From assembly GCA_023249645.1 (NCBI GenBank), contig JAHFCF010000006.1, positions 56,124 through 120,123 on the forward strand: 64,000 nucleotides of DNA, read 5' to 3'. The notes under the pieces were generated by a model. That model was given only the letters and a program-made list of their open reading frames with translations. It did not search any database and was not told the DNA's origin. Position 1 is the first letter of the stretch. Each line of letters begins with the position of its first letter. This document shows, in pieces, positions 5,960-60,193 of the stretch. A program made the position numbers and the translations under genes. The DNA comes from Elusimicrobiota bacterium (lineage in GTDB: Bacteria > Elusimicrobiota > Elusimicrobia > UBA1565 > UBA9628).

Positions 5960-6012
5960 GGAGAAGCCTCTATAAGGAAAGATAACAGAAGCAGTCACAT
6001 CGCGCATGAGCC

Positions 6013-6098
6013 AAAAGACCTAATTAGGTCTAGGTCCTTTTCCAGCCGCTTTCTAGGTCTAAAGCTCCAGAGAGATTGGAGGTCCGCTGAGCTATGAT
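6013..6098 (+). promoter_or_regulatory. Promoter region of gene 6134 with a CTAGGTC(C/T) motif array and a -10-like TATGAT (6093-6098)
   Basis: Contains aaaagacctaattaggtctaggtcctttt (including the perfect 16-nt palindrome agacctaattaggtct), ctttctaggtctaaagc and ggaggtccgc, followed by gctATGATgt and an RBS ggagcaagcc ahead of ATG 6134. Confidence 0.35.
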
Positions 6099-6133
6099 GT
6101 AGGCATGTTTGAAAACCGGCGCAGGAGCAAGCC

Positions 6134-7801
6134 ATGAAACGCTTCCTGGCCTTGGCTCTGAGCTTGACGCTATCCGGGATGCCTGTACGCGCCTTTGCCG
6201 TCGTGGTGCCTTCAGGGGTTGGCTCCACGCCGAGGCCATTCATCCTCGCCGGCCTTCGCGCTGATCTGACTGAGCCGCAGAAGCTCATCGCGCGGCAAGT
6301 GGACGCTGCCGTGGCTTCTCTCACGGCTGAGCAGCTCCGCGCGGCTCCGAGCTTGGCAAGATATCGGGGGATCGATTGGGGAGATCCGGGCTACAAGGCG
6401 ATGGCGCGCTACCTGGAATTCTCCATCCTGCCCCAGGATTCCAAACCGGAGGTCCTGGCCGTACGGCTGGAGGAAGCCCGCGCCGGGGCTGGCCAGGCGA
6501 TCCAGGAGCAGATCCGCAAGGCCTTGGAAGATCGGCTGGCGAACATGACTTTGGGGAATCAGGAAGAGGCCGCGGCAGTGCTCGCTGAGTTGGACCGGGA
6601 GATCGCGGAGTTAAAGCTTCGCCAGACGTTCCCGCAGGAGGTCTCTCTGGGCTTTTCACACGCCGCCCTTCGTGTCAATGAGATGCTGCTTCAGATCACC
6701 GCATCCCAGGCTGTGGAGGAGGTCGTCGCGGCGCCGATGCCGCAGGCTGAAGAACGGAGCCTGCTGTCGCTGCCGAAAGGTCCCGCCCCCGAGGTCGTGG
6801 AAGCTGAGATCGTTTCTCCACAGGATGAGTACAGGATCTTCGATAAAGTGCTTTCAGGCCGCAACATCAGCAGGCCTGCCAGCGACCAAGCCAAAGAGCG
6901 GGGCGTCTTTATTCAGAAAAATTATCACGGCGGTGTGGGACAAATCAAGCTCCCTGAGGAAGCCCGGTATGTCGTCTGGTCCGGGGACGGGGAAGAGGGA
7001 ATCTGGCGCAGAAAAGACGACGGTCGCTATGAGAAATTGTCCGCCACGACCATTGCTGATCTGGCGTTGTTGACAAGAAACTTCGCGAGTCAGAAGGCGT
7101 CTGCCCAAGATCAGGCGTTTAATGAAAGGATGTATACCTCAGACCTGGATCTTAGAAAAACAAAGTTCTTGGATGTTCGTGGCCAGGAAATCGAATACGC
7201 CCCATTCTTCATCGTTAAAACTGGTTTATGGAGGGTCAATGCGGCTGCTTACCAGCCACCGAAGCTGCTGAGACCGCTTACTCTCAAAAATCATCTGGCC
7301 GGTGGTTGGTTGAGCCTTACGCTGGCGGCATGGCCTGGTTTTTTCCTTAACCCGGACCTCTTCACCTTGGCCACGCAGGATTTTACGGTCCTTGGATTGC
7401 TTATTGCATCTGGTTGGGCAGGCACAATAATTGTTGGTTTCGTCTTGAAAAAAAGACTGACAAACGATGAACAAGAAAAATTGATTAAGGATAGCCTTCC
7501 AGCTGCTTTCAAGGCATGGGCTTGCACGGATGAGGGGCGGATCCGGGTTTTGCTAACGGCTGCCATGCTCCCATGGTTGGCCCCCGCTGTTGTTTTTGGA
7601 GCCGGTGCTTTTGCTTTATGGTTTCTGCCGCATATGTTGACGGCTTCTCTGGGGACCGGTGTGTATGCCGCTTATTGCGCGCTGCGCGCCGGCCGGAGCT
7701 ATCGGGAAATGACCCAACGCCTTACGGATTGGAAAAAGGCCCAGCTGGGATTTCAGCCGAACGCCAAGGGACTTCCTTATTCAAGGAGCAAGAAGTCATG
7801 A
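6134..7801 (+). CDS. Hypothetical signal-peptide protein with Gln/Glu-rich coiled-coil region and C-terminal transmembrane helices
   Basis: 555 aa with signal peptide MKRFLALALSLTLSGMPVRAFA. The C-terminal 150 aa are hydrophobic (LTLAAWPGFFL..., LGLLIASGWAGTIIVGFVL, LPWLAPAVVFGAGAFALWFL). Its stop overlaps the start of the M28 gene (ATGA). Confidence 0.5.
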   Translation: MKRFLALALSLTLSGMPVRAFAVVVPSGVGSTPRPFILAGLRADLTEPQKLIARQVDAAVASLTAEQLRAAPSLARYRGIDWGDPGYKAMARYLEFSILPQDSKPEVLAVRLEEARAGAGQAIQEQIRKALEDRLANMTLGNQEEAAAVLAELDREIAELKLRQTFPQEVSLGFSHAALRVNEMLLQITASQAVEEVVAAPMPQAEERSLLSLPKGPAPEVVEAEIVSPQDEYRIFDKVLSGRNISRPASDQAKERGVFIQKNYHGGVGQIKLPEEARYVVWSGDGEEGIWRRKDDGRYEKLSATTIADLALLTRNFASQKASAQDQAFNERMYTSDLDLRKTKFLDVRGQEIEYAPFFIVKTGLWRVNAAAYQPPKLLRPLTLKNHLAGGWLSLTLAAWPGFFLNPDLFTLATQDFTVLGLLIASGWAGTIIVGFVLKKRLTNDEQEKLIKDSLPAAFKAWACTDEGRIRVLLTAAMLPWLAPAVVFGAGAFALWFLPHMLTASLGTGVYAAYCALRAGRSYREMTQRLTDWKKAQLGFQPNAKGLPYSRSKKS

Positions 7802-9033
7802 GAATCTCCCTTAGTCTTCTCATCCTCTGTTCCGGGATCGCGTCTGCTGCTTCAGTTCCCGGAGAGAATTTCAAAAAGCCTCCGGTCGGCGCCGAGTTCC
7901 ATGGCAGCGGCGTGCCCGTGCCGCCCGTCCCGATAGCCCCGGCCACGCTCAAATCCGACGCGCCGGGAGCGCCTGCCCCCGACCAAGTCCCCGGTCCCTT
8001 GCCCGCGCCGGCAGTGCCGGCCCCGGTTCCTGTTCCCGTCCCTGAGAAAAAGCCGGTCGCCCCTCATTCTGGCTTGGCCTCGGTCGTTCCTCCGACGATC
8101 AATGCCCAGGACGTGCAGAAGGTCCAGGCCGATCTCACCGCCCTTTACGACAAGGGCCGCCTGACAGATGCCTCCATCGAGAGCTTCGTCGCATCCGTTC
8201 AGGGGACCCTCTCCCGGCACGGCCGCCCGGCGGTCCTGCGGCCCGAAGGCATGCCCACGGACGACCAGGTGGATCAGAATATGAGGAGCGCGCCCATGCG
8301 CTACGAAGACCGCCTGGCCATGGTCGCCGAGATCTTGACAAAGAATGCCGGGGTCAAGCCCGAAGAGCTCGTCTACCAGGACGTGGACGGACAGAAGAAC
8401 ATCTACTGGGTCAAGAAGGGGAGCACGGATCGGGTCATCGTCATCGGTTCGCACCACGACAAGGTGGATGGGCCGAGCCACGGCACCATCGACAATTGGA
8501 CGGGGAGCATGATCATGGCCCATCTCTCTCAGGTCATGCGGGAGTTGGACACGGAGGCCACCTATATCTTCGCCAGCTTCGCGCGCGAGGAGGATGGGCT
8601 GCTGGGCTCGGCCCAGTTCGTGCGGTCGCTGGCGCAGGATGCGAAGCAGAAGATCAATGCCATGCTCAACTTCGACACCTTGGCCGTGGACGGCACCTAC
8701 ACTTTGAAGAACACTCCTCCCTGGAGGATCTATTCCTCACAGCTTCTGCTTGACCTTTTCAGGAAGGTCGCGGAGGCTGAGAAGCTGCCTCTCGAAGAGG
8801 TGGAGCTCGAAGGCGGGGACGCGGACTCAAGCTCGTTTAAGGAATTCACCCACGCCATCACCGTCTTGGGCGCCAGGCCGCCGGGGATCTTCGACAAGAT
8901 CCATTCGGCGGCGGACAACATGTCGGAGTTCTCCCTGCCGCACTACATCAACGCCCTCAAGCTGGGCGTGGCTGTGCTGATGTACTTGAATCACCATGCC
9001 CTTCCGCCTTTCGAGGCCGCTGCCAGGAGTTGA
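7797..9033 (+). CDS. M28 family zinc aminopeptidase, secreted, with Pro/Ala-rich linker
   Basis: The ORF-track start at 7573 is an upstream extension. The likely start is ATG 7797 (MRISLSLLILCSGIASAASVP). M28 ligand motifs are present: GSHHDKVDG (HxD), DNWTG, AREEDGLLGS (EE), NFD, and a C-terminal His. Confidence 0.7.
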
Positions 9034-9683
9034 TCATGCCCGCCATCCCCCGCATCCGATCCATCGATTTCCTCTCGCCGCAACCGGCCGACCCCAGTTC
9101 CGGAGAAGCCGAGATCAGGGTCACCCTGGAGGATGGAAGCTCGTCGGCTTTCGGCATCCTCACTCCCGACCGGGTGGCGCTGGGCATGGCTGAGGCGGGC
9201 AAGGATTACTCCTTCGGCTCGCCGACGCTTTTCCTCAAACGCTTGGACCAGGACTGCCTGGGCAAGGCGGCCGAGGCCATGGCCGGCCGCATGGGAGGGT
9301 TCTGGCTGAGGTATTACAACTCCAAGCCTCTGGCGGCCGGGCAGGTCAAGAAGCTGCGCGTGGGCTCCGTCGAGCTTTCCGACATCGAGCCGAAGAAGGG
9401 TCCGACCCATGGCAGCGCCGCGGTCCAGGTGAAGCTCTCGGATGAAAGGCAATTCTCCATCCTCGCGGCCACTCCCGGTTGGTTCGTGGAGGCCTTGGAT
9501 AAGCTCGGGCTGGAGTTCTATTTCGGCCCCTGCGTCCTTTTTCTGAGCTCCCTGCAGGCCGACCTGGCGCGTGCGGCCGTCGCCCAGATGATCAAGGGCG
9601 GCGACCAGCGCCTGTGCCGCTACGACACGCCGCGCCTGACCCTGCCGCAGGTCCTCGCCGACTTCAAGGCGAAGTCCGCCTAG
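9030..9683 (+). CDS. Hypothetical protein, third gene of the M28 operon
   Basis: 217-aa ORF whose TTG/ATG start overlaps the stop of the M28 gene. GC3-rich coding. No recognisable domain. Confidence 0.45.
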   Translation: MIMPAIPRIRSIDFLSPQPADPSSGEAEIRVTLEDGSSSAFGILTPDRVALGMAEAGKDYSFGSPTLFLKRLDQDCLGKAAEAMAGRMGGFWLRYYNSKPLAAGQVKKLRVGSVELSDIEPKKGPTHGSAAVQVKLSDERQFSILAATPGWFVEALDKLGLEFYFGPCVLFLSSLQADLARAAVAQMIKGGDQRLCRYDTPRLTLPQVLADFKAKSA

Positions 9684-9783
9684 GTCCTCGGTCCGCCAAA
9701 GGGCCTATTTCAAGCTAGGTCCAAAGACGGCTCTTTTCTGGGTCCAAAGGTCCAAGGCGGCTGGGAGGCCTTGTCGATATAAT
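9680..9783 (+). promoter_or_regulatory. Promoter region of the M48 protease gene: repeated (C/G)TAGGTCC and GGTCCAAAG motifs and a TATAAT -10 (9778-9783)
   Basis: Sequence ctaggtcctcggtccgccaaagggcctatttcaagctaggtccaaagacgg...gggtccaaaggtccaagg...gtcgaTATAATgg. ATG 9796 lies 13 nt after the -10, so the leader is short or absent. Confidence 0.4.
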
Positions 9784-9795
9784 GGTCTCATTATT

Positions 9796-12660
9796 ATGAT
9801 GAAGAAATTTCTCGCTTCCTTTATTGCCGCCGTCCTCATCGTGACCGCTCCCGGCCTTTCCTCGTATGCCGCGGCGGCAGGTGTTTTTGGGAAGTCATGG
9901 CCCATCGGTCCGGGAGGCAGGATCATCGGCCCGGTAGGCGGGCACATAGCCGTGTCTGCCCCTCAGAAGGATTTCCGTATTTTTTCTCTGGAGGCCGAGA
10001 GCCAGTATTCTCCAGCGCCTGGTTGGACTGATCAGGCGGCTTTTACGGGTCGACCTCTCCCAGCTGATCAGCCTTCTCATGAGCCGTTGAAGCGGATATT
10101 GTCAGGCCAGGTGACGCTCGCTACCCCTGATGCGCACAGGCCTGTGGCTGGACTGCGGACCTGGGCCGCTGATGCGATGGACCGCCTCTTAGGCCTGGCC
10201 CCGCAGCGCTCTGCGCCAGACGAGACCCGGGCGCTTGCTGATTCCCAGGAGCCGGCTCCAGCGGCTTCTGCCAAGTTGGGGAGATCATCTTCCCTTACCC
10301 CTGAACAAGCCCCTGAGCTTGCTCAGGTGCCTGCGCCGGTCTTTGAGTCCCGCACCATGATCGTGGTCCGCATCGGTGTCGTCGCCGGGGCCGTGGTCGG
10401 TCTGCAGGCCTTGCTGCCCGCGGCTTTGGGCGCGGTCTCCGTGGCCGCGGTCTGGGCCGTGAGCCCGGGGATATTCCTGTTGCCCGTCGCCCTTTACGCC
10501 CGCCATCGCCTCGCTGCGCGCGACTCGCCGCGCCTGAGCAGCGTCAAGCGGCTGATGGATGGAGCCGTCGGCGCGTTCATCGGCGCCGCCATCGTCGCCG
10601 GCGTCTTCGCTTCCCCGAGCCTAGGACTCCTCTTGGCCGTCAAGCAGCTCGCCTTTGCCGGCCTGCCTTTGGCCTCCCTGGCCGTGGGCCGCGCTCTGTC
10701 CAACGTGACGACCCTGCCTGATTCCGCCGGGACCTACGCGATTTTGGCCATCCTGCCGGGCCTCCTGGGCGCGACAGCGGCCGGTCCCATCGGCCTGGTG
10801 CCCGTGCTGGGAATGCTGGCGCTCGCCGCCATGACGACCATCTCCTTCTGCCTTGGCCGCATCATTGCCGCGGCTGAGTCGGGCAGGCCGTTCTCGGTCC
10901 CCGGCTCCATACAGAAGATGCGTTTCCCTGTCAGCCAGTGGGTCATGCTCGGTGTGATCTTCGCCACTTGGTCCGGGCTCAAGGAGGTCTATGCCAATCA
11001 GGTTTTTTGGGCGTGGCAGATCCTCGGGTCGAGGACCTTCGCGTGGCAGAAGGACGCTCCGCTCTGGAAGAACCTTGTCTACAATCTGGCCAACTTCAAC
11101 GTCCTCTATGCGGGGCTCCTGGCTTTCGTGATCGTGACATTTTTCATGGCCGGGGCTTTGAGCCCCCTGACCTTCCTGGCCTTGGCCTTCGCGCCTGAGC
11201 GAGCGGCTCTAGCGGCGGAGGCGCTCTTGGGCAAGCTTCTGCCCAAGTCCGAACCGGCGCCATCGACGGGCGTCGAGCCAGTGGCTGATCCCTCCACGAC
11301 GGCTGATGAGCCCGTGAAGCGGCCTCAGTTCCATTATTGGCTCAAGACCCTCTCGGCTGTCGCCTCCATCGCCGTCCTGGGCCTGTGCCTGGGGACTTGG
11401 GCGTATACCTGGAAGAACTTCGCCAAGACTTTCGGCATGGCTTCTCTGATGGCCATCGGGCAGTTTTTCGGCTCCAAATATCTCATCAAGCGCCTCATGA
11501 ACACGACTCCGGCCGATGAGAAGAATAAGGATGATCAGAAGGTCTTCGCTGTCCGCAACGATCTGATGCGGCGCATCAACGACGGCCGCGTGCGCAGGGG
11601 CAAGAAGCCCATCGACGACGCTCACCGGCCCGAGCTCGTGGATGATCCCAACCTTCTTCCCAACGCCTATGCCACGGGCTGGGGTCCTTCCCATGCTCTG
11701 ATCGGCGTGACCAAGGGCATCAAGCTGATGCTCTTGGATCCGGAGAATCTGCGCCAGGGGCTTTTGCGGCTCATGGCTTCCTGCGACGCGGAGACCAAGG
11801 CCTTCAAGCTCTTCCGGGCCGCCATCGCCGGCTCGCTGGGCAAGGACCGGATCCCGCCGGAGGCCTCGCCCTCGCAGGTGGCCGAGGCTGTCCAAAGCGC
11901 TCCTGCTGAGGCTCTCGATCTCCTGGGCGTGCGCGTCCTGCGCGGGGTGATGGCTCACGAGCTCAACCATGTGATGGATTGGCACATGGCGATCGGCGCG
12001 GCCGCCGGGGCTTTCACCTCGGCTCTGTCCATGGCGAGCTGGTCGGCCATGTGGCTCGTGGGAAAGTTCAAAGACCTGCCAAAAAAGCTGGAGGCTTGGG
12101 CCGCGGAGCCCCGGCCGTTCACTCCCATCGACCGGGTCAAGACCTGGGGGCTGCAGAGCGCCCAAGCCGTGGCTGAGCCCGTGTCCGTGGTCGTGGTCGG
12201 CGGGGCGATCGCGGTACTGGCCGTGATCAAGGCCTTCGCCATCGTCTGGGGGCCCCTGGCCGCCATTCTTTTGCAGATGGCTTCTTCGCGGGCTGATGAG
12301 GGCATGGCTGATGAGGACGGGGCCAAGCTGTCCGGTGATCCAGAAGCCCTGGGCCTGGGCTTGGGTCTGCTGATGACCTGGCAGCCGCCGAAAGGCTTTC
12401 AGGTGGATAACTTGGCGGTCATCGCGCTCAATGCGCACCGCTACACGGTCAATCCTCTCGAGCAGATGCGCAACGCCGGGGTCTTGCCCCGCTTAAGCCG
12501 CCTGGCCGAAGCGCTCGCGGGCGGCAGCGACGACTTCTTCTTCAACCTCTTCGTCACGCATCCGGACACTCTGCTGCGCATCATGCGGCTGCGCGACATG
12601 ATGTCGCGCATCGACAGGCTTTCCGGAAAGTCCGTCGATGCGGGGCGGCTCAAGCCATGA
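9796..12660 (+). CDS. M48-family (HtpX/Ste24-like) zinc metalloprotease with ~550-aa polytopic N-terminal membrane domain
   Basis: 954 aa with a signal peptide, then about 10 hydrophobic segments. The C-terminal half carries M48 motifs in canonical order: NAYATGWG (NAFATG-like), VMAHELNHVMDWH (HExxH) and FVTHPDTLLRI (HPxxxxRI). Confidence 0.65.
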   Translation: MMKKFLASFIAAVLIVTAPGLSSYAAAAGVFGKSWPIGPGGRIIGPVGGHIAVSAPQKDFRIFSLEAESQYSPAPGWTDQAAFTGRPLPADQPSHEPLKRILSGQVTLATPDAHRPVAGLRTWAADAMDRLLGLAPQRSAPDETRALADSQEPAPAASAKLGRSSSLTPEQAPELAQVPAPVFESRTMIVVRIGVVAGAVVGLQALLPAALGAVSVAAVWAVSPGIFLLPVALYARHRLAARDSPRLSSVKRLMDGAVGAFIGAAIVAGVFASPSLGLLLAVKQLAFAGLPLASLAVGRALSNVTTLPDSAGTYAILAILPGLLGATAAGPIGLVPVLGMLALAAMTTISFCLGRIIAAAESGRPFSVPGSIQKMRFPVSQWVMLGVIFATWSGLKEVYANQVFWAWQILGSRTFAWQKDAPLWKNLVYNLANFNVLYAGLLAFVIVTFFMAGALSPLTFLALAFAPERAALAAEALLGKLLPKSEPAPSTGVEPVADPSTTADEPVKRPQFHYWLKTLSAVASIAVLGLCLGTWAYTWKNFAKTFGMASLMAIGQFFGSKYLIKRLMNTTPADEKNKDDQKVFAVRNDLMRRINDGRVRRGKKPIDDAHRPELVDDPNLLPNAYATGWGPSHALIGVTKGIKLMLLDPENLRQGLLRLMASCDAETKAFKLFRAAIAGSLGKDRIPPEASPSQVAEAVQSAPAEALDLLGVRVLRGVMAHELNHVMDWHMAIGAAAGAFTSALSMASWSAMWLVGKFKDLPKKLEAWAAEPRPFTPIDRVKTWGLQSAQAVAEPVSVVVVGGAIAVLAVIKAFAIVWGPLAAILLQMASSRADEGMADEDGAKLSGDPEALGLGLGLLMTWQPPKGFQVDNLAVIALNAHRYTVNPLEQMRNAGVLPRLSRLAEALAGGSDDFFFNLFVTHPDTLLRIMRLRDMMSRIDRLSGKSVDAGRLKP

Positions 12661-12670
12661 CAACGCATTG

Positions 12671-12805
12671 CCCTTTGGTCCTAGGTTCAGGGGGGTCTTT
12701 TGGCCCATCGAGGGCCCGCCAAAGGTCCCAGATGTCCTGGGTCCAATGCCAGGGCCGTCCTAGGTCCTTGGACCTGTACGCTTTCAGGACGCCGGACGCT
12801 ATAAT
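12671..12805 (+). promoter_or_regulatory. Promoter region of the receiver gene: CTAGGTCC/AAAGGTCC motif array and a TATAAT -10 (12800-12805)
   Basis: Sequence ccctttggtcctaggttcag...gccaaaggtcccagatgtcctgggtccaatgcc...cgtcctaggtccttggacctg...gcTATAATag. Includes the GGTCC-TT-GGACC inverted repeat. Confidence 0.4.
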
Positions 12806-12825
12806 AGATGCGGAAGGTTGATACG

Positions 12826-13668: not shown

Positions 13669-16245
13669 ATGAAACCCAGGCTCTACCTGGTCGATGCGCA
13701 TGCCTTTCTCCACAGGGCCTATCATGCCCTGCCGCCCTTGACCAATTCCAAGGGCGAGCCCGTGGGCGCTCTCTATGGGTTTGCCCGGATGCTCCTGCAG
13801 CTATTGAAAAAAGACAAGCCGGAACGCATGGCCGTGTGCTTCGATTCGCCCGGGCCCACCTTCCGGCATAAGATCTTCGCGGACTACAAGGCGACCCGCA
13901 AGGCCATCGATGAAGACCTCGTTTTCCAGCTCAAGCTCGCCCGAGAGATGACCGAGGCCATGGGATTTCCCTGCGTGGGAAAGCCAGGCTTCGAGGCCGA
14001 CGACCTCATGGCCACCTTGGCTGTCCAGGCGAAGAAAGCGGGCTATGAGGCGGTGCTGATCACCGGCGACAAGGACGTCCTTCAGATGGTGGGGCCGGAT
14101 ATCCGGGTCTTCAATCCTTCCAAGCAGGCCTGGATGGGAGCCTCTGAGGTGGAAGCCCGGCTCGGGGTCGGTCCTGAGTCCGTGGTGGATTACCTGGCCC
14201 TGATCGGCGACACCTCGGACAATGTCCCGGGAGTGCGCGGCATCGGCCCTGTGGGAGCGGTCAAGCTCCTTAAACAATTTAAGACGCTGGAGAAAGCGAT
14301 TGCCGCGGCCAAGGCGCATGACCCGGCGATTGCGCCCAAGACGGCCCAGGCGCTCACCGATGGAGAGCAGGACGCCCAGCGCGCCATCGCGCTGATCAGG
14401 CTCGACACCCAGGCTCCGGTGGATAAAAAGTCAGCCGAGATCGGAGCGCCTGAGCCCCAGGCCGAGAAGCTCAAGGCTGTCTTTGGCCGCCTGGAGTTCG
14501 CCAAGCTCCTCCAAGAGATCCTTCCGCGCAGCGGCGACGCCGCCTTGGCTGCCTCAGAGCCCGCCAGCGCGGTGAAGATATCGATCCGGGAAGTGCCTTT
14601 TGATGAATTGCGCCAGGAGTTCTCTCGTGCCAAGACGATCGCGGTGACGGCTCGGCTCAATGCCAAGCCGGACCTGACCGAGGGCGCGGTGCTGGCCGTC
14701 CTGGGTCTGCCGGATGGAAGGGCGGCACTTTTGAATGAGCCGTTCTTGCGCCAGGAAGCCGGGCTTCTTACCCAACTCCTTTCGAGCCCGGCTTTGAAGG
14801 TGGGCTATGACTTGAAAGAGACCCGAGCGGCTCTGCAGACCGTCGGGGTTCGCGCTTCAGGCAGGTTCTTCGACACCATGCTCGCCGCCTATTGCCTCAA
14901 TCCGGCTGATTCAGGCCGAAGCACGGTGGCCAAGGATATCCGACTCTCGGTGCTGCAAGCCGCAGTCAAGGCCCTGGAGCATCAGGTCCTCATCGAGGGC
15001 ATGCAGAGCGCCGGAGTCCTGAAGCTTTTCGAGGATATCGAGATGCCTCTCTGCGAGATTTTGCGCGCCATGGAGGCCGAGGGCGTGGCCGTGGACCAGG
15101 CCTACCTCGAATCTCTTCTGGAGGAGTTCGAGTCCGACATCGCCGCCTTGAACAAGGAGATCGGCGCTCTGGCGGGGGCCGAGGTCAATGTCAATTCGCC
15201 CAAGCAGCTGGGGGTCCTCCTCTACGACACCTTGAAGCTTCCCGTGCCGCATGAGACGGCCAAGGGCGGCCGCTCGACGGATGAGGAGGCTCTGCAGGCC
15301 CTGGCCAAGCTCCATCCCATCGCGGCCAAGATCCTCGATCATCGGGAACTCTCCAAGCTCAAGTCCACCTATGTCGTCGGACTTTTGGAGCGGCTCGACC
15401 CCAAGACCTCTCGCGTGCACACGCATTTCGACCAGACCGGTACGGCCACGGGGCGGCTTTCGAGCCTCGACCCCAATCTTCAGAACATCCCCGTGCGCTC
15501 CGCCTCAGGCCAGAGGATCCGTCGCGCCTTCATCGCTCCCAAGGGGTGCGTGTTGGTCTCCGCGGATTATTCGCAGATCGACCTGCGCGTCTTGGCCCAT
15601 GTCTCGGGAGATGAGACCCTCACGGCGTCCTTTGCCAAGAACGAGGATGTCCACACCCGCACGGCCAGCGAGGTCTTCCACGTGTCCCTCGATGAGGTCA
15701 CGACCGAGATGCGCCGCCGCGCCAAGACCATCAATTTCGGCATCGTCTATGGCCAGACCCCCTTCGGCCTGGCCTCGGAATTGGGCATCCCGCAGTCCGA
15801 GGCCAGCCAAGCCATCAAGGACTATTTCGCCCGCTATCCGGGCATCCAGACCTGGGTCGCGCGCAATCTGGAGGCGGCCCGCAAGGAGGGCTGCGTGCGC
15901 ACACTGGCCGGCAGAGTCCGGCATCTCCCGGAGCTGCATGCCAAGAACACGGCCCTGCGCCAGTTCGCCGAGCGCGCGGCGCGCAACACGCCGATCCAGG
16001 GAGGCTCGGCGGACATCATCAAACTGGCCATGATCGAGGTGGCCAAGGGTCTGCCTTCTCTGGGCAAGGTCAAGATGATCCTGCAGATCCATGACGAGCT
16101 CCTCTTCGAGGTCCCGAAGGCCGAGATGGAGCGTGTGGCTGCTTGGGCCAAGAAGACCATGGAGCATGCGATCGTCTTGAAGGTGCCTTTGGTCGTGGAT
16201 GTGAAGGCCGGCCTCAATTGGCAGGAGATGGAGGCGGTGAAATGA
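13669..16245 (+). CDS. polA: DNA polymerase I
   Basis: 858 aa. N-terminal 5'-3' exonuclease region (LYLVDAHAFLHRAYHA), then the pol A palm motifs (RRAKTINFGIVYG, QIHDELLFE). Confidence 0.95.
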   Translation: MKPRLYLVDAHAFLHRAYHALPPLTNSKGEPVGALYGFARMLLQLLKKDKPERMAVCFDSPGPTFRHKIFADYKATRKAIDEDLVFQLKLAREMTEAMGFPCVGKPGFEADDLMATLAVQAKKAGYEAVLITGDKDVLQMVGPDIRVFNPSKQAWMGASEVEARLGVGPESVVDYLALIGDTSDNVPGVRGIGPVGAVKLLKQFKTLEKAIAAAKAHDPAIAPKTAQALTDGEQDAQRAIALIRLDTQAPVDKKSAEIGAPEPQAEKLKAVFGRLEFAKLLQEILPRSGDAALAASEPASAVKISIREVPFDELRQEFSRAKTIAVTARLNAKPDLTEGAVLAVLGLPDGRAALLNEPFLRQEAGLLTQLLSSPALKVGYDLKETRAALQTVGVRASGRFFDTMLAAYCLNPADSGRSTVAKDIRLSVLQAAVKALEHQVLIEGMQSAGVLKLFEDIEMPLCEILRAMEAEGVAVDQAYLESLLEEFESDIAALNKEIGALAGAEVNVNSPKQLGVLLYDTLKLPVPHETAKGGRSTDEEALQALAKLHPIAAKILDHRELSKLKSTYVVGLLERLDPKTSRVHTHFDQTGTATGRLSSLDPNLQNIPVRSASGQRIRRAFIAPKGCVLVSADYSQIDLRVLAHVSGDETLTASFAKNEDVHTRTASEVFHVSLDEVTTEMRRRAKTINFGIVYGQTPFGLASELGIPQSEASQAIKDYFARYPGIQTWVARNLEAARKEGCVRTLAGRVRHLPELHAKNTALRQFAERAARNTPIQGGSADIIKLAMIEVAKGLPSLGKVKMILQIHDELLFEVPKAEMERVAAWAKKTMEHAIVLKVPLVVDVKAGLNWQEMEAVK

Positions 16246-17088: not shown

Positions 17089-17118
17089 ACTGTGTCCGGA
17101 CACAGTTCGACCCACAGG
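17089..17118. repeat. Palindromic element copy 2: ACTGTGTCCGGACACAGT fused to the right half (tcgacccacagg) of the second palindrome
   Basis: 17089-17106 is identical to the 18-bp palindrome at 1833, 30383 and 60139. It lies between the rhomboid stop and the probable coaE start (TTG 17122). Confidence 0.75.
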
Positions 17119-20038: not shown

Positions 20039-20093
20039 GGGGTCAGGTCTTGACTTTTGACTAAGCTTCAGTCAAAAGTCAAGACCTGACCCC
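20039..20093. repeat. Perfect inverted repeat: 24-bp arms (GGGGTCAGGTCTTGACTTTTGACT / AGTCAAAAGTCAAGACCTGACCCC), 7-nt spacer
   Basis: Seen directly 1 nt after the lytM-like stop and ahead of the rpmE promoter. The right arm recurs at 56891-56917. Confidence 0.8.
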
Positions 20094-25152: not shown

Positions 25153-25174
25153 CAACTGTTGCCGGCAACAGTTG
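25153..25174. repeat. Palindrome CAACTGTTGCCGGCAACAGTTG (CTGT-N8-ACAG type) upstream of the ROK kinase gene
   Basis: Same CTGT-N8-ACAG architecture with a CCGG core as the 18-bp element at 1833, 17089, 30383 and 60139. Lies 43 nt upstream of ATG 25217. Confidence 0.7.
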
Positions 25175-30382: not shown

Positions 30383-30432
30383 ACTGTGTCCGGACACAGT
30401 ATCTTCGCGAGGGAACTGTGGGCGCCCACAGT
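30383..30432. repeat. Bipartite palindromic element copy 3: ACTGTGTCCGGACACAGT (30383-30400), 14-nt spacer, ACTGTGGGCGCCCACAGT (30415-30432)
   Basis: Both halves are perfect 18-bp palindromes. Lies between the epimerase stop and the rfbB start. Confidence 0.8.
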
Positions 30433-32565: not shown

Positions 32566-32605
32566 ATGGCAAAATTGTGTGCAAATTGTGAATTGTTGCT
32601 ATAAT
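32566..32605. promoter_or_regulatory. Divergent promoter region between the pilin gene and the two-component system, with AAATTGTG direct repeats and a TATAAT (32600-32605)
   Basis: Sequence ggcAAAATTGTGtgcAAATTGTGaattgttgcTATAATgg. The -10 is only 11 nt from the RR ATG at 32617. Confidence 0.3.
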
Positions 32606-32616
32606 GGCGGACAGCC

Positions 32617-33303
32617 ATGCCGAAGATCCTTATCATCGAGGACGATCCTCATATCGTGGAGGCTGTGGAAAAAATCCTGAGTTTAGAGGAGGGCTTCAGC
32701 CTGGAACATGTCGCGGTCCCGGACAAAGCCCTCGCCGAGGCGGTGCGCCTGAAACCGGACCTCATCCTTCTCGACGTCCGTCTGCCCGGCGGCGATGGGC
32801 GTTCGATCCTCAAGTCCCTCAAACAGAACGCTGCGACCGGCGCCATCCCGGTGATCTTCCTCACGGGCCTGGCCGGCGAGGCGGACAAAGTCTTGGGCCT
32901 GAATCTCGGCGCGGACGACTATGTGGCCAAGCCTTTCGGCGCGCTGGAGCTTCTGGCGCGCATCCAGAGCGTGCTGCGGCGCTGTCAGCCGCAGGGTCCT
33001 GCCGGCGGGAGCATCGAGCTGCCCGGCCTGCGCCTGGATGGGGAGAACCGCGACGCTTTCGTCAACGGCAAGCCTTTGGGGCTGCAGCCCCGGGAATTCG
33101 AAGTGCTCTCCCTTCTTGCCTCCCGCCCGGGGCGGGCCTTGAGCCGCCGCTATCTCATCGAGAATACCTCCTCCTATGGGCGCGAGGTGTTCAGCCGGAG
33201 TCTGGACACCCACATCAAAAACATCCGCAAAAAGCTGGGGCCGAAGGCCGACTTAATCGAGACCGTCTCCAAGCTGGGATACCGTTTGAATCCCCATGCC
33301 TGA
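32617..33303 (+). CDS. OmpR-family response regulator (receiver + winged-helix DNA-binding domain)
   Basis: Sequence MPKILIIEDDPHIVE...LILLDVRLPGGDG...YVAKPF, then a winged helix (EFEVLSLLASRPGRALSR...VSKLGYRL). Confidence 0.85.
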   Translation: MPKILIIEDDPHIVEAVEKILSLEEGFSLEHVAVPDKALAEAVRLKPDLILLDVRLPGGDGRSILKSLKQNAATGAIPVIFLTGLAGEADKVLGLNLGADDYVAKPFGALELLARIQSVLRRCQPQGPAGGSIELPGLRLDGENRDAFVNGKPLGLQPREFEVLSLLASRPGRALSRRYLIENTSSYGREVFSRSLDTHIKNIRKKLGPKADLIETVSKLGYRLNPHA

Positions 33304-38421: not shown

Positions 38422-38454
38422 ACACCTACAGGTTAATGGTTTCTTTAAAATACG

Positions 38455-38500
38455 ACCAGGGACTTTAGACCTGCTCGAGGATGGGTCAAAGGGCCTAGGC
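38455..38500 (-). promoter_or_regulatory. CTAGG/AGACCT/CAAAGG motif cluster upstream of the GGDEF gene
   Basis: Sequence ctttagacctgctcgaggatgggtcaaagggcctagg. Same motif family as at 6013, 9680, 12671 and 49770. Lies between the doxX stop and the GGDEF start. Confidence 0.25.
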
Positions 38501-49769: not shown

Positions 49770-49833
49770 ATCAGGGTCGGGAGCCTAGGTCAAGAGACCT
49801 AGGAGGCGTAGGTCTTATGCGGGATTTTTTTTA
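49770..49833 (+). promoter_or_regulatory. CCTAGGTC inverted repeat (cctaggtc aaga gacctagg), additional TAGGTCT and palindrome GGCCCTTTGGCCC upstream of gene 49877
   Basis: Seen directly. Same CTAGGTC motif family as the other promoter arrays. Confidence 0.35.
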
Positions 49834-49876
49834 GGCCCTTTGGCCCTTACGGTTTTTCGGAGGAGGGGCTATCCTT

Positions 49877-54282: not shown

Positions 54283-54356
54283 ACCGATCGATTGCGGGAT
54301 GGTGAAATGGTATCACGGGTGGCTCTGAACCACTTATTCTAGGTTCGAATCCTAGT
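54283..54356 (+). tRNA. tRNA-Gln (anticodon CUG)
   Basis: Folded by hand. Acceptor TGCGGGA/TCCCGCA with U1-A72 and G73 (Gln identity). D-arm GTGA/TCAC. Anticodon stem GGTGG/CCACT with loop CTCTGAA. T-arm CTAGG-TTCGAAT-CCTAG. CCA encoded. Confidence 0.85.
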
Positions 54357-54386
54357 CCCGCAGCCACTTTAGTCGTTATAAGGACT

Positions 54387-56890: not shown

Positions 56891-56917
56891 TTCAGTCAAA
56901 AGTCAAGACCTGACCCC
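56891..56917. repeat. Single-arm copy (TTCAGTCAAAAGTCAAGACCTGACCCC) of the 20039-20093 inverted repeat
   Basis: 27/27 nt identical to 20067-20093. Immediately followed by the AAGGAGG RBS and the ATG of the ferritin-like gene. Confidence 0.8.
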
Positions 56918-60137: not shown

Positions 60138-60193
60138 GACTGTGTCCGGACACAGTCACTGATTTTTTGAACCGACTGTGGTCGACCACAGTC
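60138..60193. repeat. Bipartite palindromic element copy 4: GACTGTGTCCGGACACAGTC (60138-60157), 16-nt spacer, GACTGTGGTCGACCACAGTC (60174-60193)
   Basis: The second palindrome lies within the last codons (…LWSTTVG…) of the EndoQ-like gene. The first straddles its stop codon. Confidence 0.8.

Follow-up and report, generated by a model that had tools for sequence, protein, structure and literature searches.

Repeated boxes in the intergenic DNA of the window

This study concerns a recurrent promoter element in a 64,000-nucleotide stretch of DNA from the Elusimicrobiota contig JAHFCF010000006.1 (the window, by which we mean throughout the whole stretch that was analysed). The window has a G+C content of 62% and encodes PolA, Rho, thioredoxin, an M48 peptidase, an M28 peptidase and purine-synthesis genes, among others. 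Its nearest PolA relative in a species-representative genome collection (59% identity) comes from an Elusimicrobia metagenome-assembled genome, and the named homologues of its M48 protease are all from Elusimicrobia (38-54% identity), the record of the source contig itself (100%) aside. A preliminary description of this DNA had pointed to arrays of a CTAGGTC-type motif in five intergenic regions, often paired with CAAAGG/CCTTTG and, in three cases, ending shortly before a -10-like hexamer. Here we describe these repeats as parts of a composite module, in which three boxes with a period of 23 bp stand in fixed register with a -10 hexamer, and which recurs upstream of genes in other Elusimicrobia genomes.

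Direct reading of the sequence found the motif copies where they had been reported, and the repeated CTAGGTCC/AAAGG motifs are real. CTAGGTCY occurs six times in the window, where 1.26 copies are expected, and none of 100 shuffled sequences reached six. The preliminary description had suggested that a similar density inside coding regions would mark the motif as a compositional artefact. Instead, the box proved to be concentrated in intergenic DNA, which makes up 3.9% of the window on a corrected gene map: 6 of 8 CTAGGTC copies are intergenic (binomial p = 9e-8), with a seventh straddling a stop codon, as are 10 of 30 copies of the more general YTRGGNCC (1.2 expected, p = 1e-7). The bare GGNCC core, by contrast, shows no intergenic enrichment (24 of 584 sites, 22.8 expected). 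The enrichment is therefore real, and attaches to the longer box rather than to base composition.

A three-box module in register with the -10 hexamer

The clue to a larger architecture was a stretch of 110 nt that precedes the M48 orthologues in two related contigs (L042 and L043), which could be aligned by eye with region C of the window. When window regions and relatives' regions were aligned using MAFFT, they proved to be colinear, and 21 promoters from about 12 contigs gave a near-gapless alignment over 108 columns. About 15 other Elusimicrobia contigs show the same architecture, ahead of orthologous as well as unrelated genes, and it was not found in 661 kb of non-Elusimicrobia control loci. 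Besides the window, the lineages of L002, L042-L052, L055, L056 and L058 count as motif-positive, and those of L063, L064 and L067 as motif-negative; GCA_026388095.1 and GCA_016212825.1 are examples of motif-positive metagenome-assembled genomes.

Numbering positions with the -10 hexamer set at -12 to -7, and reading the layout from the column statistics of the aligned promoters, we define the module as three boxes followed by a TAnnnT hexamer shortly before the start codon. Each box has the form YTRGGNCC, followed by an A/T-rich step and often by a second GNCC unit. The consensus sequences are GYC-MWN-GGSCC for box1 (-95 to -84), YTRGGNCS-WWT-RCC for box2 (-75 to -62) and YTRGGNCC-TWN-GRCCCG for box3 (-52 to -36); the third box begins 39-41 nt upstream of the -10 hexamer and ends 23 nt from it. 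The core of box3 is a partial dyad, RGGNC-N4-GNCCY, centred near -43.5, and clear dyads are seen in box3 of module C (AGGTCC-TT-GGACCT) and in L064 (TAGGTCC-GA-GGACCTA). What had been described as a separate CAAAGG/CCTTTG motif is better read as the A/T step plus the second half-site of each composite box. The hexamer itself is of the sigma-70 type (consensus TA.AAT, TAnnnT), usually with a G at -14, and the alignment columns between -35 and -15 hold no information content. Invariant columns spell T.GG.C in box2, T.GG.C....G in box3 and TA...T in the hexamer. The invariance of T, GG and C in boxes 2 and 3 owes something to the way in which the promoters were collected, yet positions -45, -44, -41, -39 to -37 and -67 to -62 are also conserved, although they lay outside the selection criteria.

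This geometry also emerges from a gene-blind scan of both strands of 379 kb of Elusimicrobia DNA, in which the distance was measured from every T[AG]GGNC[CTG] to any downstream TANNNT. The distances peak at 38-39 nt (42 counts), 60-62 nt (70) and 85 nt (14), with about 4 per bin otherwise, while the same histogram is flat in the 661 kb of non-Elusimicrobia loci, which were taken from around PolA. Same-strand spacing between boxes peaks at 23 bp (22 counts, against 0-2 at nearby spacings and 0 in the controls), with minor peaks at 46-47 bp and at 6-7, 16-17 and 30-31 bp, the last three of which reflect the second half-site.

We then searched the window using nhmmer with a hidden Markov model (HMM) of 22 modules from other genomes, built without any window sequence. 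The model found exactly the five regions of the preliminary description, with E values from 7e-12 to 0.06, the fifth being marginal. The remaining matches in the window (E 0.016 to 1.4) lie on the reverse strand and only inside modules B and C, because the boxes are dyad-symmetric. The best score in 50 simulated windows was 8.6 bits, and there were 0 matches in the control loci. The five regions therefore stand as places, but as fixed-register modules rather than as loose arrays. The modules and their parts are as follows, with the matches to the HMM given for each.

6010-6098, plus strand: module A, complete, with box1 to box3 and the -10 hexamer; colinear with the other modules; HMM match 6005-6098, E = 1e-3
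6010-6021, plus strand: module A box1, GCCAAAAGACCT, overlapped by the adjacent dyad AGACCTAATTAGGTCT at 6016-6031
6030-6043, plus strand: module A box2, CTAGGTCCTTTTCC, with its T 62 nt upstream of the -10 hexamer
6053-6069, plus strand: module A box3, CTAGGTCTAAAGCTCCA, with its T 39 nt upstream of the -10 hexamer
6093-6098, plus strand: module A -10 hexamer, TATGAT, by direct reading
9695-9783, plus strand: module B, complete; HMM match 9691-9784, E = 1e-7
9695-9706, plus strand: module B box1, GCCAAAGGGCCT
9715-9728, plus strand: module B box2, CTAGGTCCAAAGAC
9738-9754, plus strand: module B box3, CTGGGTCCAAAGGTCCA
9778-9783, plus strand: module B -10 hexamer, TATAAT, 12 nt before ATG 9796
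12671-12694, plus strand: terminator-like hairpin directly after the M48 stop codon, probably outside module C
12718-12805, plus strand: module C, complete; HMM match 12717-12806, E = 7e-12
12718-12729, plus strand: module C box1, GCCAAAGGTCCC
12737-12750, plus strand: module C box2, CTGGGTCCAATGCC
12760-12776, plus strand: module C box3, CTAGGTCCTTGGACCTG, which includes its dyad
12800-12805, plus strand: module C -10 hexamer, TATAAT
38430-38498, minus strand: module D, degenerate; HMM match 38513-38480, 9.0 bits, E = 0.06
38498-38482, minus strand: module D box2, CTAGGCCCTTTGACCCA
38474-38458, minus strand: module D box3, GCAGGTCTAAAG..., in which C replaces the invariant T
38435-38430, minus strand: module D -10 hexamer, TAACCT; ATG 38421 of the PAS-GGDEF gene follows 8 nt later
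49784-49875, plus strand: module E, complete; HMM match 49782-49851, E = 3e-6
49784-49803, plus strand: module E box1, dyad CCTAGGTCAAGAGACCTAGG
49808-49821, plus strand: module E box2, GTAGGTCTTATGCG
49831-49847, plus strand: module E box3, TTAGGCCCTTTGGCCCT
49870-49875, plus strand: module E -10 hexamer, TATCCT

The hexamers previously reported at modules A, B and C were thus all recovered, and the region given as 49770-49833 turned out to belong to a full module too, with its own hexamer at 49870. Two of the other regions needed redrawing. In the one given as 12671-12776, the part from 12718 onwards comprises the boxes of module C, whereas the first 24 nt (12671-12694) more likely form a hairpin that serves the preceding gene as its terminator. 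The region at 38463-38499 does carry a module, but a weak one that is read on the minus strand, and the call of module D is not secure, its 9.0 bits standing against the simulated-window maximum of 8.6. Upstream of module B, extra box copies (CCTAGGTCCTCGGTCC) occupy 9679-9694, the first of which includes the stop codon of the upstream gene.

Genes carrying the module

In the window, the module precedes genes for a protein of 555 aa that has both a signal peptide and membrane segments near its C-terminus (module A; 6134-7801), the M48-family metalloprotease (module B; 9796-12660), a receiver-only response regulator (module C; 12826), a secreted protein of 203 aa that bears a signal peptide (module E; 49883) and, weakly, the PAS-GGDEF protein (module D; 38421, minus strand). 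The start of the response-regulator gene is probably ATG 12826, which is preceded by GGAAGG, rather than ATG 12808, because the latter lies only 2 nt after the -10 hexamer. The layout of module B is common to the orthologous promoters in six other genomes, and the orthologues of module C are the promoters that follow the M48 gene in L046, L051, L052, L055 and L056. Genes carrying the module in relatives encode M28, S8 and C39-like peptidases, a membrane protein of about 1100 aa and several unknown proteins. The predicted regulon would therefore comprise a conserved gene cluster for membrane proteins and exported proteases (M48 and M28 in the window, S8 and C39-like in relatives), together with scattered secreted and signalling proteins.

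Modules are found at 4 or 5 of the 23 intergenic regions of the window; other promoters have different motifs or none. Among the housekeeping promoters of the window, those of the L31 gene and of genes with CTGT-N8-ACAG (LexA-type) boxes lack the module. The element is thus regulon-like rather than universal.

Conservation of boxes across genomes

The alignments show boxes that are kept and spacers between them that diverge. Among M48 orthologous promoters the pairwise identity is 0.75 in boxes and 0.40 in spacers; among the orthologous promoters downstream of M48, including module C, it is 0.77 and 0.43; and among the four paralogous modules of the window it is 0.66 and 0.36; the overall range is 0.62-0.77 for boxes and 0.31-0.43 for spacers. 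Box conservation persists among M48 orthologues whose proteins are just 46-54% identical to that of the window. As judged from these identities, the pattern of kept boxes and free spacers looks like the signature of constrained binding sites, not of recently copied repeats. Even the genome with the PolA of 59% identity, which has 0 exact copies of CTAGGTC, carries two modules with variant boxes.

Across genomes, the boxes stay in register with the -10 hexamer to within 1 bp and are always oriented toward the downstream gene, and every match with E < 1e-4 faces a long open reading frame (ORF). Most of the related loci were fetched via the M48 gene, which makes them a biased sample. Architecture, conservation, orientation and restriction to a subset of promoters are all directly visible in these data.

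We also looked for RNA-level and known-operator explanations of the repeats. RNAalifold on 21 modules gave a consensus fold of -0.68 kcal/mol with 0 compensatory pairs, the sole Rfam match in the window at gathering thresholds is a tRNA (54293-54363), and a scan of the window for the CtsR operator (RGTCAAA-NAN-RGTCAAA) came back empty when as many as 3 mismatches were allowed.

Promoter context and predicted transcript starts

Between the -10 hexamer and the start codon there are usually 5-12 nt, often 5-9, and in several M48 orthologues exactly 7. It is because start codons follow so shortly that the hexamers are credible as -10 boxes, and the short distance would imply mRNAs that are leaderless or nearly so. 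At module E, for example, the in-frame ATG 49883, 7 nt after the hexamer, would give a leaderless mRNA. No usable -35 element was evident in the module promoters, where the best match to TTGACA averages 2.27 of 6 positions, like that in shuffled sequence (2.23), and a scan for consensus sigma-70 promoters does not call the module -10 boxes.

The same proximity of hexamer and start extends beyond the modules. In the window, in L002 and in L042-L058, many genes have an ATG or GTG 5-9 nt after a TAnnnT hexamer, a pattern suggestive of widespread leaderless transcription in this clade of Elusimicrobia. Promoters here generally lack a -35 consensus, although perfect TTGACA-N17 promoters do occur in a few places (near 17760 in L056, near 13223 in L043).

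Two observations bear on individual starts. Downstream of module A, a 10-codon ORF (MFENRRRSKP; 6105-6137) begins with ATG 6105, 6 nt after the -10 hexamer, and its stop codon overlaps the main ATG of gene 6134 (ATGA); this may be a leaderless upstream ORF coupled to gene 6134, or a coincidence. Downstream of module B, the public record of the M48 protein (P0001; 767 aa, 100% identical) begins 187 codons downstream of ATG 9796. Given that homologues cover 98% of the long form and that the module immediately precedes 9796, the start in the deposited annotation is probably wrong.

Search for a cognate regulator

When about 40 proteins encoded nearby in the window and in L042 were scanned against Pfam for a regulator, only an OmpR-type regulator, receiver-only proteins and the PAS-GGDEF protein came up, and none of these is linked to the modules in several genomes. 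A small protein pair beside the M48 gene was considered as a regulator and set aside, having no recognisable DNA-binding domain. In the window, this pair takes the form of a 217-aa protein (9030-9683) upstream of the M48 gene, a fusion of two paralogues of about 110 aa. The two halves are likewise fused in L051, L052 and L056, and are encoded by separate adjacent genes (109 and 113 aa) in L042 (8146-8813), L043, L046, L047 and L049; they belong to no Pfam family. In relatives, the small protein pair has its own conserved promoter, AAATTGGTAATATCAT.

Other motifs and annotation

The window holds a second set of palindromes of the form CTGT-N8-ACAG, eight in number where 0.31 are expected.

1834-1849, 1871-1886, 17090-17105, 25156-25171, 30384-30399, 30416-30431, 60140-60155 and 60176-60191: CTGT-N8-ACAG palindromes

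Four of the eight are an identical 16-mer, CTGTGTCCGGACACAG, and three pairs, 32-37 bp apart, are intergenic. The pattern is the LexA/SOS box of the E. coli type, and it is probably the motif of a second, separate regulon; no LexA gene was recognised in the window.

A 22-mer, AGTCAAAAGTCAAGACCTGACC, is present in three copies, within 20041-20091 and at 56894-56915. Two of these make up the 22-nt arms of a palindrome that immediately precedes a TATAAT (20100) and the L31 gene (20113); the third precedes the rubrerythrin gene (56929). The 22-mer could be an operator common to the L31 and rubrerythrin genes, with a metal- or peroxide-responsive regulator as one candidate to bind it.

In terms of gene calls, the longest ORFs of the 555-aa protein (6134-7801) and the M28 peptidase (7573-9033) overlap by 228 nt in different frames, so that one of the two genes, probably M28, must start at a later position. 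In L042, a region called intergenic (15600-15772) contains about eight tandem 18-nt repeats (CCGCAGCCTCAGCCGCCGCAT and variants), which probably encode a proline- and glutamine-rich repeat protein.

Discussion

The preliminary description had proposed that the motif is a transcription-factor site or an UP-type element. The first of these fits the conserved boxes, their fixed register, their orientation and their confinement to a subset of promoters, whereas an UP element accords less well with G+C-rich dyads that reach to about -95. It is very probable that the boxes are protein-binding operator arrays. More specifically, we favour a reading in which they are tandem operators bound by a candidate dimeric regulator that activates transcription, to which we give a probability of roughly 0.6; a dimeric regulator is preferred because dyad boxes of about 16 bp recur every 23 bp in register with the -10 hexamer. 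Dimers of one sequence-specific regulator would occupy the three boxes cooperatively, and the promoter-proximal dimer, beside the -35 position, would contact RNA polymerase and activate transcription, in a class II-like arrangement with upstream helper sites. Transcripts would then begin at, or a few nucleotides from, the start codon, with predicted starts 6-8 nt after the hexamers of modules A, B, C and E. We infer the protein binding, the activation rather than repression and the transcription start sites from the arrangement of sequence elements.

A number of points weigh against activation by a dimeric regulator. The transcription start sites are predictions. A spacing of 23 bp does not correspond to full helical turns, as the 21 bp of the DevR promoters discussed below does. 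The dyad is partial, the invariant T at -51 having no symmetric A at -36, and the boxes may alternatively be a direct repeat with an 8-bp offset. No transcription factor consistently adjoins the modules across genomes, and no ORF with a helix-turn-helix (HTH) of the GerE/LuxR type was found among 2531 ORFs in the 379 kb, a weak negative obtained with an HMM built from C-terminal sequences of NarL, DosR, FixJ, LuxR and GerE. Candidate promoters that have no boxes also match TTGACA at chance level (mean 2.28); the weak -35 is a lineage property and not a specific sign of activator dependence, and since box-less promoters equally lack it, we have dropped the missing -35 as an argument. Finally, genome-wide frequency and regulon content are extrapolated from 64 kb and from related loci that were mostly collected through M48.

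The same conservation and geometry would apply equally to operators of a repressor or dual-function regulator, whose occupancy of -36 to -95 would block or remodel the access of RNA polymerase. In this clade promoters function without a recognisable -35, boxed or not, so that the -10 hexamer alone may suffice and the boxes could act negatively; L042 even has more in-phase boxes downstream of its -10 (14849-14912). Simple occlusion, on the other hand, needs no 1-bp register with the -10 hexamer across genomes whose proteins are about 50% identical, and none of the three conserved boxes overlaps the hexamer or the predicted start, which leaves this explanation unlikely. We consider it less likely still that the module marks a clade-wide second promoter class of GC-rich Elusimicrobia, leaderless and -35-less, with boxes at -43/-66/-90 read by RNA polymerase or a dedicated general co-factor. 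Were this to be true, the factor would coordinate a large secretome and protease programme, and about one module per 15-25 kb would amount to the order of a hundred promoters per genome.

A related idea, that RNA polymerase itself reads the boxes as a lineage-specific UP-like or extended element of a second promoter class, through the alpha-CTD or an extra sigma domain, draws on the strictly fixed distance to the -10 hexamer, the wide distribution of the boxes across the clade, the A/T-rich step after each G+C core and the several neighbouring boxed promoters around the M48 cluster. Yet the conserved cores are G+C-rich dyads and not A-tracts, the 23 nt between the end of box3 and the hexamer are too many for the spacing of sigma region 4, and only a minority of window promoters are boxed, the housekeeping ones lacking boxes. 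The usual reach of the alpha-CTD is also shorter than three copies extending to -95, and we regard this idea as improbable. The OmpR-family regulator encoded at 32617-33303, next to a histidine kinase, had been put forward in the preliminary description as a protein to test for binding. OmpR/PhoB sites are also phased tandem arrays that replace the -35 element, but these proteins bind head-to-tail direct repeats with a period of 10-11 bp, whereas the half-sites here are 8-9 bp apart and largely inverted. Moreover, no module is linked to the regulator gene, and the stretch ahead of that gene (32585-32616) contains no box. We do not favour this protein, and think its binding to the boxes highly improbable. 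As for the repeats being non-functional, whether as a compositional artefact of a genome rich in CCTAGG/GGNCC, as remnants of dispersed repeats or as structured leader RNA, it is true that CTAG itself is enriched in intergenic DNA (15 of 36) and that GGNCC, with its 584 sites, is very common. This has only the slightest chance of being right, given that the 8-mer box is enriched in intergenic DNA where GGNCC is not, that the position relative to the -10 hexamer is fixed across genomes, that the low identity of the spacers rules out recent repeat copies, and that there is no RNA structure, covariation or Rfam match.

Turning to known systems, the closest documented precedent for tandem operators of a dimeric activator is found in the dormancy promoters of Mycobacterium tuberculosis that are controlled by DevR/DosR, a member of the NarL family, which the module resembles by likeness to a published consensus rather than to a scoring model. 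In these promoters 2-4 dyad boxes stand in tandem, for example at -42.5 and -63.5; the half-sites are of the GGGACT type, with one essential G and one essential C, and cooperative binding and activation depend on phasing (PMC3177182). DosR bound at this position contacts sigma region 4 and the alpha subunit (PMC13486717). The module likewise has two or three boxes, where DevR promoters have two to four of about 18-20 bp; its proximal box sits near or over the -35 position (about -43.5, if the start lies 7 nt after the -10 hexamer), with the next about two turns upstream (about -66); and upstream or secondary boxes are weaker in both systems. Both have a 5-4-5 layout with GG.C / G.CC, the gapless GGGAC-TWWA-GTCCC of DosR corresponding to RGGNC-CTWN-GNCCY here, where the symmetry is partial. 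They differ in spacing (23 against 21 bp), in the fourth base of the half-site (free here, A in DosR) and in phylum, and no NarL-type regulator was found in the window or within the 379 kb searched.

Other familiar arrangements fit less well. PhoB sites activate transcription through contact with RNA polymerase, and pho-box arrays consist of tandem sites phased at about 22 bp, placed upstream of a -10 without a usable -35. Pho boxes are, however, 7-bp direct repeats with an 11-bp period that abut the -10 region at about 10 bp, while here the half-sites lie 8-9 bp apart, mostly inverted, and box3 ends 23 nt away, so that the boxes do not qualify as pho boxes. Class II CRP/FNR promoters have a dyad site centred at -41.5 to -43.5, some with extra upstream sites, but their palindromes follow a 5-6-5 layout in which about 11 bp separate the half-site centres, compared with 5-4-5 and about 9 bp in the module. 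UP elements share a fixed upstream position relative to the core promoter, and the A/T-rich step after each box recalls them; they are, however, A/T-rich and lie at about -40 to -60, whereas the module has conserved G/C in three units reaching to -95 and does not fit their definition.

A limited literature search returned no description of this motif or of promoter architecture in Elusimicrobia, a largely uncultivated phylum whose transcription signals are almost uncharted. Tandem activator sites or operators are already well known as a principle, so that the module adds to annotation and to the discovery of regulons without establishing a new principle. Novelty resides in the motif itself, in the strict 23-bp geometry, in the conservation across a clade of an uncultivated phylum and in a predicted regulon that joins proteases, secretome and signalling proteins under leaderless promoters. 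With its box consensus, its 23-bp phasing and its fixed distance to the -10 hexamer, the module constitutes a searchable cis-regulatory code, the fixed positions of which help to predict start codons, and it supplies an exact DNA bait for identifying the regulator. For the biology of these bacteria, the predicted regulon ties exported proteases (M28, M48, S8 and C39-like) and membrane proteins to signalling genes.

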